Source: a bacterium | Lineage (GTDB): Bacteria > UBA8248 | Direction: 5' to 3' | DNA: 64,000 bases | NCBI GenBank assembly: GCA_965207065.1 | Contig: OZ242260.1 | Location: 4,096,001-4,160,000 of the forward strand | Shown here: positions 25,831 to 54,554 of the stretch, in pieces | Numbering within the stretch: position 1 is the first letter of the stretch | Layout of the letters: the number at the start of each line of letters is the position of its first letter | Notes under the pieces: generated by a model | Told to the model about the DNA's origin: nothing | What the model saw: the letters and a program-made list of their open reading frames with translations, nothing else | Databases searched by the model: none | Made by a program: the position numbers and the translations under genes

Positions 25831-26193
25831 TTGGACTGGATAGGAGTGGGACTTTTGGCGCTGGGCGCCATCGTGGGCACGCTCAACGCGGCCACTGGCG
25901 TGGGCTGGGGCATCATCATGATGCCCGTGCTGTTCCTCATCCCCGGGCTCACGCCCCAGCAGGCGGTGGCGGTCTCGATTCTCGCCTATCTGTTCAACTC
26001 GCTGGTCGCCTCGTTCGAGAACGTGCGAAGCGGCCTAATTGTCTGGAATTACGCGGTTTATCTCAGCATCGGGGCTATCGTCGGCGGCGTCCTGGGCGCG
26101 CATCTTCTCCAGACATTCTCGGCGCTGACGCTCAAGAGAATCGTGGGCGTCGTTGTGATCGGCGCGGGCGCGAGCCTGCTCATCAACCGCTGA
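25831..26193 (+). CDS. Half-size TauE/SafE (sulfite exporter-like) membrane protein
   Basis: AAGGAG RBS then TTG; GVGWGIIMMP, QAVAVS, GAIVGGVLGA. Confidence 0.82.
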   Translation: MDWIGVGLLALGAIVGTLNAATGVGWGIIMMPVLFLIPGLTPQQAVAVSILAYLFNSLVASFENVRSGLIVWNYAVYLSIGAIVGGVLGAHLLQTFSALTLKRIVGVVVIGAGASLLINR

Positions 26194-26226: not shown

Positions 26227-26473
26227 AAGCTGCTTGCGCTTCATAGGCTCCCGACTATACTGGCAGGGCATATAAAGTACACGAAATCAGCGATTTAACG
26301 TAATCTGTTTCATGCGATACATCGGCCGGCTATCCCAGCAGCTTCCTCTTCATCCAGCCCAAAGCCCGCGCCACGGCGGAGAACAGCCCGCCCACTCACG
26401 TGGGGCAGGCCGTTTGTTCCGGCGGCGTTTGGCCCTTATCGTGAATCTTCTCCTGCGTGGGGTTCGGCATGAT

Positions 26474-26827
26474 TCAGCCCTCTCCTCCCTGCGAGCTTTC
26501 GGCGCGTCCGGGGGCGATATCGTAAAGATAATCAAACGAATAGATGCCCGCGCCGCAGCCGCCCCGCCAGATGAAATTGATGGCGTAGCGCCCCACCATC
26601 TCCACGTTCTCGAGCTCTGTCGGCCCACTCGGCCCCGAGAGGACGGCGAGGGGGTTTTTCTCGCGCTCCTTGCGCTCCTCCTTGCAGTTCGCACACGGAC
26701 AAAGGGCCGCGAGGTAATCGAAGCCGTAGGCGCTCTTCTCCCCGCTCGCCCACTCGACGCGAAACTCGCGGGCGGGCTTGTCCACCGTGAGATCGACGGG
26801 ATGGGCCTTGTCGACAGGTGTGTTCAT
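26474..26827 (-). CDS. DUF971 / GBBH-like N-terminal domain protein
   Basis: LCPCANC, VGRYAINFIW, GIYSFDYL. Confidence 0.88.
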   Translation of the reverse strand: MNTPVDKAHPVDLTVDKPAREFRVEWASGEKSAYGFDYLAALCPCANCKEERKEREKNPLAVLSGPSGPTELENVEMVGRYAINFIWRGGCGAGIYSFDYLYDIAPGRAESSQGGEG

Positions 26828-26861: not shown

Positions 26862-27521
26862 CTATCTCGCCTTCATCCCGTATTTCTCATACTTCTTCGC
26901 CGAGGAGGTGCCGAGCTTGGCGGATTGGGGCGTCTTGAGCTCCAGCAGCCAGGGCCGCTCGGCCGAGGTGGCCCGCACGGCGTCCAATAGCCCCTGCTCG
27001 TCACCCTCGTTTTCCCAATCGCCTTCTTCGAGCTTCACGAAAACGGGTTTGCCCTCCCCGAAATCGAGCGTGGGAACGCCGAAGATGCCCTGCTCGGCCG
27101 CGTCCTCATGCTCTTGCGCAATGAGGGGGATGGTGGCGCCGTTTTTCATATCCTCCTCCCAGCGGTCGACGTCCAGGCCCACTTCCACGGCGATATCGCG
27201 CAGAACCAGCTCGCTGGTGATGTCCTTGCCGTCACGGTGCCTCGCCCGGTGGAGCGCCACGTGGTACTTGTCGAACTGCGTCTCGCCCTGTAAAGCCGCG
27301 CATTTAGCCGCCTGATGCGGGGGCAGATCCCTGCTCGGGAAGGTCTTGTCCTCCCAGGCCTTCCAGTCCTCTCCGCGCGAGGGGCCGAAATTCGCCTGCT
27401 CGAGCACGAAGGCCTTATAGTCCACATTCAAATCGCTTCTTTTCTCCTGAAGACGAACGAGCCACTCCATGGCCCTGTAGGCGTAGGGTCAGACGTAGCA
27501 GTTCCACATGGTGACTTTCAT
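26862..27521 (-). CDS. DsbA/FrnE-like thioredoxin-fold protein, probable selenoprotein (C-Y-V-U-P-Y-A)
   Basis: AAGGAG RBS, ATG 27521, in-frame TGA at 27489-27491 read into the 27470 ORF; GIFGVPT cis-Pro motif; hairpin 27459-27475. Confidence 0.85.
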
Positions 27522-27632
27522 GATTTTCTCCTTAACAAACCGGGACATAAAGAAACATTGCGCGCCAATCATACACCACAAGAACGCCGATGAAAAAGCA
27601 GGACAAAGTCTTTTGAAAATAGCCGTATTCCG

Positions 27633-28241
27633 CTATTTTTCAGGCGTGAGCGCCTTGTTCAGCAGGTCTTGCGCACCCGCATTCAAGGAAAGCTCCCTGG
27701 CGGCCTCCTGCCCGCGCGCGGACATTTTCGCCCAAGTTTTCCGCAAGATGCCGATGATTTTCTCCTCATCATGCAGGCGGGAGAAATCCCAGAAATAGCT
27801 TTCCAGAAACACCAGACAGGCGACATCCTCGAGTGTCTGGGTTTCCGTGTCTGACTTCAAGCCCTTTTTTTTCAACAGCATCCGCACACGGGCAGTCGTT
27901 TGCTCATCGTAGCCCACCTTCTCGAGTATCTCGGCCGCTTTCTCCCCATGATAGTCGTAAAGGCGGATCCGCCATTGATGATATCCCTTCCGACCCAGTG
28001 GATATTCCGAACGTGGAATCTCCCATCTGCGTATGTGCTGGCTTCGCACAGCCAGGCGCAGGGCTTCAGAGGCTTGCGGCTCTATGGTATCTAGCCAGTT
28101 CGTCATTCTCATCGAATACAAAAGCTCTTTGGGGTATTCTTCGCCCTCGAAACTCTCGTTATTCGGATCTTCAGAATTCGCCTCATCGATGAGGCGCAAA
28201 GCATCTTCAAAACGCGTGGGTTGTCCATTCATGATTCGCAC
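27633..28241 (-). CDS. DUF4202 family protein
   Basis: IDEANSEDPN, PKELLYS, RSQHIRRWEIPR, LEDVACLVFL. Confidence 0.88.
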   Translation of the reverse strand: MRIMNGQPTRFEDALRLIDEANSEDPNNESFEGEEYPKELLYSMRMTNWLDTIEPQASEALRLAVRSQHIRRWEIPRSEYPLGRKGYHQWRIRLYDYHGEKAAEILEKVGYDEQTTARVRMLLKKKGLKSDTETQTLEDVACLVFLESYFWDFSRLHDEEKIIGILRKTWAKMSARGQEAARELSLNAGAQDLLNKALTPEK

Positions 28242-31088: not shown

Positions 31089-31528
31089 AAAAACAATTGG
31101 AATTTCTGGACGAGACGCCTGAGGACCAGGTGAAAACGGCGGTCTTGCTCGTCGGTCACGGCAGCCGCGCCCGAAACGCCAACGATGCGCTTTTCCGCGT
31201 AGTGGACCATTTCCAAAAAGCGTGGCCTCATCGCATATTAAGGGCCGCTTTCCTTGAGATCAGCCCTCCCTCCATTCCCGAAGGAATCGACTTGTGCGTG
31301 GGAGAAGGGGCCGAGAGAATCATCGTTATCCCTTACTTCCTTTTCAGGGGCAATCACGTGAAAGTGGACTTGCCCATCTTCATCAAAGAAGGCCGGAAGA
31401 AATTCCCGGATATCGACATCATTTTGGGCCCGCATCTCGGCTTCCATCCCAAGATGATCGAGATTGTAGATGAACGAATCCAACAAGTGCTCGATACGCT
31501 AAAATTCGAGGAGAAAGCGCTCCCATGA
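31076..31528 (+). CDS. Sirohydrochlorin chelatase (CbiX/SirB-like, small)
   Basis: LVGHGSR, AFLE, PYFLFRGNHVKVDLP. Confidence 0.9.
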   Translation: MSSLEKQLEFLDETPEDQVKTAVLLVGHGSRARNANDALFRVVDHFQKAWPHRILRAAFLEISPPSIPEGIDLCVGEGAERIIVIPYFLFRGNHVKVDLPIFIKEGRKKFPDIDIILGPHLGFHPKMIEIVDERIQQVLDTLKFEEKALP

Positions 31529-32499
31529 CCGATCGAAACGGATCCGTCCGTCCCATCGCCATTTACTATGAACACCCCGAGTGGTTCAAAAAGCTTTTCG
31601 ATGAACTAGACAGGCGGAATATTGCATATCAAAAAATCGAAGCTCACAACCATCGCTTCGACCCGACCGAAACCGAATCACCTTATTCGCTGATTGTAAA
31701 CCGAATGAGTCCGTCCGCATGGGCGCGCGGGCACACCCATGCGATTCCCTACACACTCGAGTATTGCGCGCACCTCAAGGCGATTGGCGCCAACGTGATC
31801 AACGGCTACGAGGCCTACCTCCATGAATTCTCAAAAGTGCGCCAAACCCGCCTGCTCAAAAGCCTGGGCGTCAACCACCCGAGATCAGGGGTGATCAACC
31901 ACCCCTCCCAGGCTCCGGCGGCGGCTGAGGGATTCAGTTTTCCCGTCATCACGAAGGCGAATATCGGCGGAAGCGGAGCCGGTATACAAAAGTACGATAC
32001 GCCTGAAGAACTCCAGAGAGCGGCGGATGAAGCGAGTATTGATTTCGGCATCGACAATGTAGCGCTCGTTCAGGAATACATCCCGCCGCGTGGAGAGCAA
32101 ATTGTCCGTGTCGAGGTTTTGAATAGTAAGTTTTTATATGCGATCCAACTGGCTTTGGTGGATCCGAACTCGTTTAATCTCTGCCCGGGCAGTTATTGCC
32201 GCCGCAACGAGGAAATTGCATGCGGCGTGAACGGCAGGAGCGCGTTGATTGAGAAGGTCACACCCCCTCAAGAAGTAATTGAAACGGTCGAGAAAATCAT
32301 GCAAACAGCCGGCATAGAGATCGGCGGCGTCGAATATCTGGTCAGCGATAAGGATGGGGAAATATATTATTACGACATAAATGCGCTCTCCAATTTCGTG
32401 GACGATGCGCAAAATGTGATCGGTTTCGACCCCTGGCCGATGATGGCCGACTTCATCCTTGATCGCGCGCAGCACCCAGCTTCTACACTAAGTGTTTAA
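31525..32499 (+). CDS. ATP-grasp ligase (RimK/glutathione synthetase-like)
   Basis: KANIGGSGAG, VQEYIP, GGVEYL, YDINALSNF. Confidence 0.87.
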   Translation: MTDRNGSVRPIAIYYEHPEWFKKLFDELDRRNIAYQKIEAHNHRFDPTETESPYSLIVNRMSPSAWARGHTHAIPYTLEYCAHLKAIGANVINGYEAYLHEFSKVRQTRLLKSLGVNHPRSGVINHPSQAPAAAEGFSFPVITKANIGGSGAGIQKYDTPEELQRAADEASIDFGIDNVALVQEYIPPRGEQIVRVEVLNSKFLYAIQLALVDPNSFNLCPGSYCRRNEEIACGVNGRSALIEKVTPPQEVIETVEKIMQTAGIEIGGVEYLVSDKDGEIYYYDINALSNFVDDAQNVIGFDPWPMMADFILDRAQHPASTLSV

Positions 32500-52408: not shown

Positions 52409-53845
52409 ATGAATCAAAAAAATTTCCCGCAGGATCCCGGTTCAGTCGGCCTCACGAAAACGCGGACCATAGCCCTTCCCGAGCCGTTTCGGACCGATTC
52501 CGGCGAAACATTGCCCGAAGTTCAGGTTGCCTATGAAACATATGGAGAACTCTCTCCCAGCGCAGATAACGCCGTTTTGGTCATCCATGCACTTACGGGC
52601 GACGCGCATGCTGCCGGCTTCCACAACCCAGACGACCCGCGCCCAGGCTGGTGGGACCCGATGATCGGTCCCGGCAAAGCCATCGATACCCGAAAATACT
52701 TCGTCGTCTCCTCGAACAACCTGGGGGGATGCTCGGGCACCACGGGGCCCACTACGATCAATCCCGCTACGGGCAGAGCCTACAACACCGCTTTTCCCGT
52801 CACCACGGTGGAAGATACCGTTCGCGTCCAAAAACTGCTTCTCGACCATCTGGGCGTCAAACGCCTCAAAACGGTCATCGGCGGCTCGCTCGCCGGGATG
52901 CAAACCCTCGAATGGGGCCTGCGCTACAGCGATTTTTGCGATTCCGTCATACCGGTCGCCGGAGCCGCGCGCCTGGACCCGATGGGAATCGCATGGGACA
53001 AAATCGCCCGCAGGGCCATCACTGCCGACGGCGCATGGAAAGACGGCGACTACGCCGCTGGAGAAGGACCACGCAAAGGTCTGAGCGCGGCGCGCATGCT
53101 GGCCCACATCACCTATCTGAGCCGAGGGATCATGTGGGAGAAATTCGGCCGCGAGATCAGGGATAAGGACAAAATGCTGGACGACATCGACTCGCGTTTC
53201 GAGGTGGAGAGCTACCTCGATCACCAGGGAGACAAATTCGTCGATCGTTTCGACGCCAATTCGTATTTATATATCTCCCGTATGATGGATCTTTATGATG
53301 CCTCCCTGGGTTTCGAGAGTCTCGAGGCGTCGCTGTCCCGGCTGAAAACCAAGTGCCTGCTTGTATGCTTCATTTCCGACTGGCTCTTTCCGCCGGAAAG
53401 AAGCATGGAGATCACTCAAATCCTCCAAAAACTCAGGCATGAAGTGGAGTTGCATACGGTGGAATCCACCTACGGGCACGACGCGTTCCTGGTGCAATAC
53501 GACAAGCTCACCGAAATCGTCGGTGGTTTTCTTGAAAGGCTCGAAAACGGAGGCCCGATCGGCATCAACGCGGCACCCATACCCCGGGGATGCAAGCGGC
53601 TGGTTCTCACTGTGCCGGGCCATCTCGTGCAGAAACCCATTTTGTGGGAACTCGGCCGAAAATACTCGTTTTCCATCAACATTATGAGAAGTGAGCTGGA
53701 TGCCCAATCCGGGTGGCAGGTATGCGAATTCGATGGAAACGAAGAGGAAATCGCACAAGCCGTGACGGAACTCCGGGAAATGGGAGTGTGGGTCGACCCC
53801 GGGGGGCATGACGCCATCGACCATGACCGCGCCGAAGTGGTATAA
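52409..53845 (+). CDS. metX: Homoserine O-acyltransferase with C-terminal NIL-like domain
   Basis: HALTGD, GGSLAG, FDANSY, YGHDAFL; extra ~80-aa C-terminal domain. Confidence 0.92.
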   Translation: MNQKNFPQDPGSVGLTKTRTIALPEPFRTDSGETLPEVQVAYETYGELSPSADNAVLVIHALTGDAHAAGFHNPDDPRPGWWDPMIGPGKAIDTRKYFVVSSNNLGGCSGTTGPTTINPATGRAYNTAFPVTTVEDTVRVQKLLLDHLGVKRLKTVIGGSLAGMQTLEWGLRYSDFCDSVIPVAGAARLDPMGIAWDKIARRAITADGAWKDGDYAAGEGPRKGLSAARMLAHITYLSRGIMWEKFGREIRDKDKMLDDIDSRFEVESYLDHQGDKFVDRFDANSYLYISRMMDLYDASLGFESLEASLSRLKTKCLLVCFISDWLFPPERSMEITQILQKLRHEVELHTVESTYGHDAFLVQYDKLTEIVGGFLERLENGGPIGINAAPIPRGCKRLVLTVPGHLVQKPILWELGRKYSFSINIMRSELDAQSGWQVCEFDGNEEEIAQAVTELREMGVWVDPGGHDAIDHDRAEVV

Positions 53846-53921
53846 ACCGGAAAATTGCCGCCTGGATATAAGCTCGCCGGTATTTTTTAGAGATTCGTTA
53901 CAAATCAGACGGAGGCACGCC

Positions 53922-54554
53922 ATGAGCAAGTTGAAAGAACCAATCGTTGTGGTGAAATACTCAGATTACACATGACCTTTTTGTTATGTCGCCACCGTAG
54001 GTGGTACACCCGTGATTGAAGAAGACCCCGACGTCGTCGTCGAGTGGGTGAGTTGGGAGGGGAGACCACCCGGCCAGGAGTTCGCCGGCTACTCGCCTGA
54101 GCAAAAACAAGAAAGTTACGAGACGAATCACAAACCTCTCGCCGAGAAGTACAACGTGCCCATCCGGGTGGCGGGGGGCGACTACCGCACCACCAACCTG
54201 CACATGGCCACCTATTACGCCCGCGACAAGGGAAAGTTCAAGGAATTCCGGAATCGCTGCTACAAGGCCCGCTGGGAGGACGACCTGAACCTGGAGGATC
54301 TGGACGTCATCGCAGGACTCGCCGAGGATGTCGGCCTGGACGGCGAGGAAATCAAGGCCGTCATCTCCGAGGGACGCTACATCGGCGCATTGCACAGCCA
54401 GCGCGCCCAGGGGAAAGGCCTGGGTATTTACGGCATCCCCACGTTCGTGGTGGAAGGAAAGCTCTTCTGGGGCAAAGACGTCATCGACGACGTCAAGGAC
54501 GAGGTCGCGCGCGTGAAGCAAGAACGGATCGAGAAAGAGAAACAGGAGAGCTAG
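53922..54554 (+). CDS. DsbA/FrnE-like thioredoxin-fold protein, probable selenoprotein (U-P-F-C)
   Basis: GGAGG RBS, ATG 53922, SDYT-TGA(53973)-PFCY in frame with the 54012 ORF; GIYGIPTF; hairpin 53987-54008. Confidence 0.9.

Follow-up and report, generated by a model that had tools for sequence, protein, structure and literature searches.

A DsbA-like selenoprotein with cysteine in place of the family aspartate three residues before selenocysteine

Thioredoxin-fold enzymes are usually sorted into those with a UxxC motif (Trx, Grx and DsbA) and those with a CxxU motif (SelW and Rdx). In the available parts of two earlier lists, the DsbA-like selenoprotein appears as UxxC only (PMC1088965, PMC9312934). 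A catalogue of 2026 lists two DsbA-like forms, form 1 (UxxC) and form 2 (DxxUP), and its accessible portion contains no CxxU form of PF01323 (PMC13188914). Among proteins of the same fold, DR2335 is described in two partly available reviews as cytoplasmic and DsbA-like, with a single conserved Cys; one of the two states that functional data had not been reported (PMC8945050, PMC6300522). The nucleophile of the family is the residue at position 11, and Rv2466c-type enzymes resolve through a Cys at +3 or through a small thiol, according to the accessible part of PMC8280269. A redox-active disulfide in a CxxU-register motif (−225 mV) is reported for MIEN1 in the portion of PMC3527542 that is available.

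Here we analysed a 64,000-nucleotide stretch of bacterial DNA (the window). On sequence grounds, its gene at 26862..27521 (minus strand) encodes a real but mis-annotated selenium-containing redox protein of the DsbA-like family. The gene is near-universal in the phylum of the host (49 of 51 genomes) and always has Sec, yet the annotated products that we found are short and lack the active site. One fold seems to hold both UxxC and CxxU types around a fixed Sec. The new part is the Cys at −3 (CxxUP), within a catalogued family; this is not a new system.

Gene structure and recoding of the in-frame UGA

The features of the gene are as follows.

26862..27521, minus strand: DsbA-fold (PF01323) selenoprotein gene, 219 amino acids, predicted motif C8-Y-V-U11-P-Y-A, without a signal peptide
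27528..27533, minus strand: Shine–Dalgarno sequence AAGGAG with a 6-nt spacer to the ATG; all 44 orthologs have a Shine–Dalgarno sequence
27498..27500, minus strand: Cys8 codon TGC, taking the place of the family Asp; all 62 distinct clade proteins have TGC or TGT
27489..27491, minus strand: in-frame TGA, predicted Sec11; TGA in 62 of 62 clade proteins and in 49 of 49 phylum pattern matches
27459..27475, minus strand: predicted SECIS hairpin, 7-bp stem, GGA loop 20 nt after the UGA
27327..27329, minus strand: Asp65 codon; position acidic only in rows without Asp8

Read from the ATG at 27521, the minus strand gives MKVTMWNCYV-TGA-PYAYRAMEW, continues in frame with the ORF that begins at 27470 and ends at a TAG at 26862; the TGA is the only one inside the 219-residue frame. 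The start, its AAGGAG and the shared frame are all as the earlier note had proposed. The Pfam DSBA model (PF01323) matches from residue 3 with 64.4 bits (cut-off 25.6), and no NCBIfam model scored above its cut-off for this protein or for eight relatives. The traits of a periplasmic DsbA oxidase (a signal peptide and CPHC) are absent, as strand 1 runs from residue 2 and the motif is UPYA. Sec aligns with the Cys of DR2335, FrnE and Rv2466c, which bears out its earlier placing at the attacking-Cys position.

To define the set of orthologs, we searched 61 genomes, 47 of which had some match and 44 a full-length ortholog. All 44 carry Cys-x-x-TGA-Pro-[Tyr/Phe]-Ala and a Shine–Dalgarno sequence before the upstream ATG. 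They also all keep the N-terminal segment, the absence of which from homologs had been named in the earlier note as evidence against its reading. The alternative start at codon 18 is ACG in 14 of the 44 and ATG in the other 30, none of which (0/30) has a Shine–Dalgarno sequence. A pattern search of 51 genomes of the phylum, which permitted TGA, TGC or TGT at the Sec codon and gave no control match, found the motif in 49, with TGA each time; in one of the two non-matching genomes, the gene is cut by a contig end. Cys occupies the Sec position in 12 distinct D-type proteins and in DR2335. The host genome encodes tRNA-Sec together with selA, selB and selD (above cut-off), and this selD itself carries an in-frame TGA.

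The hairpin GGGCCA-TGGAG-TGGCTC, noted earlier as starting 13 nt after the UGA, was found at 27475-27459 and folds, at −9.3 kcal/mol, into a stem of 7 bp and a GGA loop. Its stability by itself is no better than that of shuffled sequences (z = −0.73; 42 of 200 fold as well); the case for recoding beyond chance comes from comparative evidence. The bacterial SECIS model, as given in the accessible part of PMC13188914, specifies a loop of 3–9 nt, a stem of 4–16 bp, a G within the first two loop positions, a distance of 16–37 nt from the UGA and a minimum free energy of −7.5 or lower, and the hairpin lies within all four of its constraints (3-nt GGA loop, 7 bp, 20 nt and −9.3 kcal/mol). Among 31 sequences less than 90% identical, the stem codon Ala17 is GCC in 29 of 30; none of the other degenerate sites (48 in all, median 0.50) is as constrained, and GCC also holds in genomes with GC3 near 0.25. 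In the same 31 sequences, 98.2% of stem cells are paired and the loop-closing pair varies (C-G in 16, U-G in 9 and U-A in 6); none of 50 distinct stretches shows the mismatch ACG-GAA. A shuffle control for stem pairing gave 5 of 500, a count that ignores relatedness and is not a probability. These comparisons indicate that the hairpin is under synonymous constraint.

If the UGA were a stop, the true protein would begin at 27470 or the gene would be broken. Public annotation agrees with such a reading, as a word search returned 37 annotated homologs that are all truncated (at most 204 residues, covering at most 92% of the query), with the active site missing from all 30 that were aligned, and the unexceptional stability of the lone hairpin points the same way. 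We nevertheless consider a stop very improbable, given the TGA in 44 of 44 orthologs, the ACG and missing Shine–Dalgarno sequences at the alternative start, the Ala17 codon kept even at a GC3 of 0.25 and the complete Sec machinery of the host. According to the AlphaFold model, the shortened form would also be left without strand 1 and the active site. On comparative evidence, both the fold and the recoding of UGA11 to Sec, by way of the predicted SECIS element and the SelA, SelB, SelD and tRNA-Sec of the host, are strongly supported. Contigs from RNA runs of two studies (runs X3 and X4 being identical records) have an unchanged UGA region; such contigs cannot show transcription or strand, and we do not count them as support.

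Distribution and origins of the cysteine at −3

We examined 195 loci, of which 188 have the motif and 7 do not (cut ends, one possible frameshift and one case of Trp in place of Sec). L161, a D-type homolog (D-Y-L-W-P-Y-V) in which Trp replaces Sec, is possibly decayed. The motif types among 137 distinct proteins are C-x-x-U (63), D-x-x-U (60), D-x-x-C (12) and D-x-x-S (2). The residue at +3 is Val or Ala in 53 of the 60 distinct D-x-x-U proteins, and among 148 library representatives, 60 have a readable motif, with Cys at +3 in only 10. All 44 orthologs have Ala at +3, where form 1 has its resolving Cys. Given the D-x-x-U relatives, DR2335 and the catalogued form 2, absence of a resolving Cys is ordinary in this branch. 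Of the rearranged motif that the earlier note had described, the −3 Cys is conserved as a real difference, but the novelty of Ala at the resolving position was overstated, as this feature is family-wide and catalogued.

In the CxxUP clade, the Cys8 codon is TGC or TGT in all 62 distinct proteins, never Ser or Ala, with identity within the clade down to 34% (27-row subset). Its members come from the phylum of the host, from two Deltaproteobacteria-labelled genomes and from 4 of 56 genomes of a Planctomycetia-labelled class. In quick trees without bootstrap, the clade is one branch, with an SH support of 94 with the motif columns and of 87 and 91 with them masked. Two further proteins have a −3 Cys elsewhere in the fold: the metagenomic gene L143 (C-Y-T-U-P-W-V), which lies deep among Asp-type proteins with a support of 99, and a paralog of the host genome (C-V-H-U-A-W-C), which falls inside the FrnE-type branch. 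On a 42-row tree, for which 18 rows of an earlier tree were dropped (fragments, long branches and near-duplicates) and 4 added, parsimony gives 3 changes for gain of the −3 Cys, and a single clade is rejected (p-AU = 1.65e-12). By these trees, the −3 Cys arose at least three times in the DsbA fold.

A word search with residues 1–45 returned no full-length Cys homologs of the clade (its 3 candidates are truncated Sec genes), and no Cys-type clade homologs occur in the 51 phylum genomes. Two small clusters of Cys homologs (C-Y-V-C-P-Y) are broken-looking fragments of 99–115 residues, and one Cys-homolog fragment has Tyr at the attacking position. A loose DNA pattern run on 401 genomes of an outside phylum gave 89 matches, about the control level, with 0 homologs in 40 fetched loci, and the only real loci there were the two known ones, G061 and G062. 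We also considered Cys74 as a co-evolving second new thiol and rejected it, since the UxxC sister clade and a D-type row share it and the Planctomycetia-labelled branch, which retains Cys8, lacks it.

No DsbA-like protein with CxxUP turned up in our literature search; its coverage stopped short of two publications that may bear on novelty, the structure paper on DR2335 and Haft and Tolstoy 2025. No such protein was found in the available part of PMC5029168, supplement included, and a term search of PMC12013277 gave no match. BSepDB covers relatives, as the accessible part of PMC13326102 has a namesake of the L075 genome under GTDB UBA8248, with 54 selenoprotein genes, and the gene may therefore be listed there as DsbA-like. 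The supplement of that paper has no DsbA or motif entry.

Changes at a second position accompany the loss of the family Asp. Of the rows without Asp8, all 29 (27 from the clade, L143 and one Asn-type row) have Asp or Glu at position 65, whereas none of the 84 rows with Asp8 has an acidic residue there; this pattern represents two or three independent events only. The C-V-H-U-A-W-C lineage, which is outside that alignment, has Ser at the matching position; an acid at 65 hence accompanies Asp8 loss in two of the three −3 Cys lineages. In the AlphaFold model (pLDDT 94.8; 115-row alignment), strand 2–7 is followed by loop 8–11 and helix 12–27, and residue 65 lies just before helix 66–76. From these patterns, we infer that a carboxylate moved from position 8 to position 65.

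The Rdx selenoprotein of the host, to which MIEN1 is homologous, begins MKLHVEYC-E-K-U-N-Y and has C8, U11, Y13 and R16 at the same numbers as the query. Its model (pLDDT 76.5) has strand 3–7 and helix 14–27, and DSSP places CxxU between strand 1 and helix 1 in both models. HHalign aligned the DsbA-fold and Rdx motifs without a gap at a low probability of 7.4%. The 84 Asp-type rows alone gave 3.8%, and inclusion of the Cys rows gave 62%, a value that is circular; the signal is weak, but the register is the same in all three. Fold searches returned no Rdx chain among the 50 matches listed, which has no bearing on the register. The Rdx/SelW-like selenoprotein with C-E-K-U (L209; G000:C1:285684-285902, minus strand) was found in 19 of 31 genomes searched, all of the genus of the host.

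Proposed role of the second thiol, paralogs and gene neighbourhood

Cys8 probably gives the protein a different way of resetting its active site. The reading that we favour, to which we give about an even chance (probability of roughly 0.5), is that the protein is a thiol-disulfide reductase that works through its selenol in the cytoplasm and belongs to the DR2335/Rv2466c branch of the DsbA fold; Sec11 would attack and Cys8 would resolve. As in the family generally, Sec11, placed next to the cis-Pro loop (GVPT, 148–151) where helix 1 starts, would attack a disulfide or mixed disulfide. Because +3 is Ala, Cys8, where strand 1 ends, would resolve the mixed selenenylsulfide and yield a Cys8–Sec11 bond in the SelW/Rdx register, and Asp65 would take on the role of the lost Asp8 carboxylate. 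For re-reduction of the oxidised enzyme, we infer thioredoxin or a small thiol. The best local substrate candidate, in the family of the host only, would be the Cys-rich DUF971 protein encoded downstream.

In favour of a Cys8–Sec11 pair, all three −3 origins have Cys rather than another small residue. The invariance of Cys8 and the TGA in the clade, the C-Y-V-C-P-Y reading of the two Cys-homolog clusters, the register shared with the Rdx protein, the MIEN1 disulfide and the acid at 65 also speak for it. In addition, gshB, bshC, mshC and the PF04262 ligase were not found above cut-off in the host genome (96% complete; the MshC profile scored 290.7 against a cut-off of 485.1 bits), and the small thiols of known monothiol relatives may therefore be missing. 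Against a pair, the same genome encodes two GCS2-family ligases, so a small thiol may exist. Further points against it are the low HHalign probabilities, the few events behind the position-65 pattern and the fragmentary state of the Cys homologs. The C-V-H-U-A-W-C lineage also argues against it: all 25 loci have the −3 Cys and 24 of them the classical resolving Cys as well, so the −3 Cys is kept there even without need for a new resolving residue. In addition, 53 of the 60 D-x-x-U relatives are without any second thiol.

These last observations fit a mono-selenol enzyme, in which redox activity would belong to Sec11 alone, resolution would fall to a small thiol (coenzyme A, gamma-glutamylcysteine or another), and Cys8 would be structural or pKa-tuning, filling the space left by the moved carboxylate. 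DR2335 likewise has no second thiol, an acid appears at 65 where Asp8 is lost, Rv2466c, DsbM with GSH, HCCA isomerase and GST kappa are among the structural neighbours, and Rv2466c-type enzymes use a monothiol route (PMC8280269, accessible part). Also on this side are two distant homologs (P0056 and P0110) in which a dephospho-CoA kinase (PF01121) is fused to a DR2335-like domain, a hint that coenzyme A may be the thiol of the wider family. Of these two readings, both raised in the earlier note, the evidence leans to the pair, and we hold a mono-selenol enzyme to be possible but less likely: a merely small residue should vary (Ser, Ala or Thr), yet Cys is present in 62 of 62 clade proteins and in all three origins, and the third lineage has Cys without an acid at 65.

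It is possible, although somewhat short of an even chance, that the DsbA fold has repeatedly turned a U/C-x-x-C site on helix 1, the thioredoxin register, into a C-x-x-U site that precedes helix 1, as in SelW, with the same attacking residue, through replacement of Asp8 by Cys and movement of the carboxylate to the helical domain. If true, this would show directly how two thioredoxin-fold motif registers interconvert.

The host genome encodes five DsbA-fold selenoproteins and one Cys-type protein of this fold. Two of the paralogs are as follows.

53922..54554, plus strand: paralog D-Y-T-U-P-F-C (UxxC, form 1), 21% identical over 168 amino acids; for comparison only, not part of the locus
G000:C1:3649436-3650014, plus strand, outside the window: paralog C-V-H-U-A-W-C (L218/L227), Sec flanked by Cys on either side and not followed by Pro

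The first of these reads SDYT-U-PFCY; an ORF at 53267-53929 (minus strand) was rejected as the paralog because it is antisense noise, the paralog being on the plus strand. The second was found in 25 of 46 genomes searched and represents an independent gain of the −3 Cys. Also outside the window, L220 (G000:C1:4172515-4172994, minus strand) has E-Y-H-U-P-W-A, with Glu at −3 and no second thiol, and a further DsbA-fold selenoprotein of the host, L217, has D-F-L-U-P-W-C. One genome holds a natural series of D-x-x-U-P-x-C, E-x-x-U-P-x-A, C-x-x-U-P-x-A and C-x-x-U-A-x-C, the last of which would have two alternative resolving cysteines. As these paralogs differ at exactly two flanking positions, the role of the second thiol is testable by point mutants.

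The genes around the locus are the following.

26474..26827, minus strand: DUF971/GBBH-like_N (PF06155), co-oriented, with CPCxxC; linked in two families only
26330..26470, minus strand: C-P-T-U micro-selenoprotein candidate of 46 codons, after DUF971; in 31 of 66 loci
27633..28241, minus strand: DUF4202, upstream and co-oriented; linked in part of the family of the host only
25831-26193, plus strand: TauE ORF, covering positions 1-110 of a 237-position profile
31525-32499, plus strand: RimK-like ATP-grasp gene in the siroheme/sulfite-reductase block

Among 65 distinct loci with sufficient sequence, 50 have DUF971 downstream of the gene, and its distribution is by family: 36 of 36 genomes of families f1 and f2, 0 of 8 of f3 and f4, and 0 of 3 outside loci. 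Its protein has G-C-x-x-G-I-Y in 49 of the 50 loci, with D-G-H-x-x-G-I-Y in an f2 relative, and the sequence suggests that it carries a four-Cys metal site. The divergent cobA, NIR/SIR and cbiX block and the upstream DUF4202 gene are confined to the family of the host (about 37 of 81 loci). The convergent TauE fragment (about 120 residues), either a half-size transporter or a shared truncation, occurs in 20 of 81 loci, all of close relatives, and aconitase-type LeuC and LeuD are found downstream in 28 and 25 of 81 loci, respectively. Downstream of the gene in three f4 genomes (L037, L040 and L043) is a class II ribonucleotide reductase, which depends on a disulfide reductant.

The DUF971 (co-oriented), TauE and NIR/SIR neighbours on which the earlier note had drawn are thus present, with TauE half-length and convergent and the reductase genes divergent, but its hint at sulfur or selenium handling is weak, as all three links are lineage-local. 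We rejected the TauE and sulfite-reductase link as functional evidence for the same reason, namely lineage-local synteny. The motif is older than any neighbour link, and the neighbours therefore do not define the function.

The DUF971 gene also speaks for a metal-binding role, in which Cys8 and Sec11 would together coordinate Zn, Cu, Hg or an Fe-S cluster; the protein would then be a metal-thiol chaperone or sensor acting with the four-Cys DUF971 protein, and not a free oxidoreductase. Its frequent position next to the gene, nearly always with the Cys in G-C-x-x-G-I-Y, the Fe-S enzyme genes nearby in part of the set (aconitase-type LeuC/LeuD and NIR/SIR) and the resemblance of the paralog motif C-V-H-U-A-W-C to a ligand set are all consistent with such a role. 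It appears improbable, as all 8 genomes from two other families and all 3 outside loci lack the DUF971 link with the motif unchanged, and the cis-Pro loop and substrate-groove residues of the reductase family are retained.

Comparison with described systems

The branch nearest to the query comprises the D-x-x-U-P relatives (27–40% identity), which, judged by domain and motif, probably correspond to form 2 (catalogue representative MDP6049977.1). PF01323 and Sec-Pro at the attacking position are shared with form 2, whose listed motif has no Cys; form 2 has Asp at −3, whereas the protein described here has Cys at −3 plus an acid at 65. Form 1 or FrnE-type proteins (UxxC, such as the 53922 paralog) have the same fold, Sec position and SECIS position and are the sister group in trees, but have a resolving Cys at +3 and Asp at −3.

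DR2335 of Deinococcus radiodurans (PDB 7DK9/7DKA) is the best match both in sequence (E = 1.6e-38 with the family profile) and in structure (Z = 23.6; rmsd of 2.5 Å over 197 residues). It shares Ala at the resolving position (D-F-L-C-P-Y-A) and is predicted to be cytoplasmic, but has Cys rather than Sec, Asp at −3 and one conserved Cys only; in the CxxUP clade, Cys8 and Sec11 are both invariant and Cys74 is present in 26 of 27 rows. The mycoredoxins Rv2466c and NCgl2339 (PF22234) have the same fold, align over the full length and have their nucleophile at the same position. Unlike the query, which has no PF22234 match, they carry CPWC or CPFC with a resolving Cys at +3. They need mycothiol.

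Proteins of the Rdx family (SelW, SelT, SelH and MIEN1; PF10262) have a fold of about 80 residues without the DsbA helical domain and have no Pro after Sec, and the query does not match PF10262. Common to both are the Cys right after strand 1 and the Sec at +3 from it, before helix 1, a likeness that is motif convergence and not membership.
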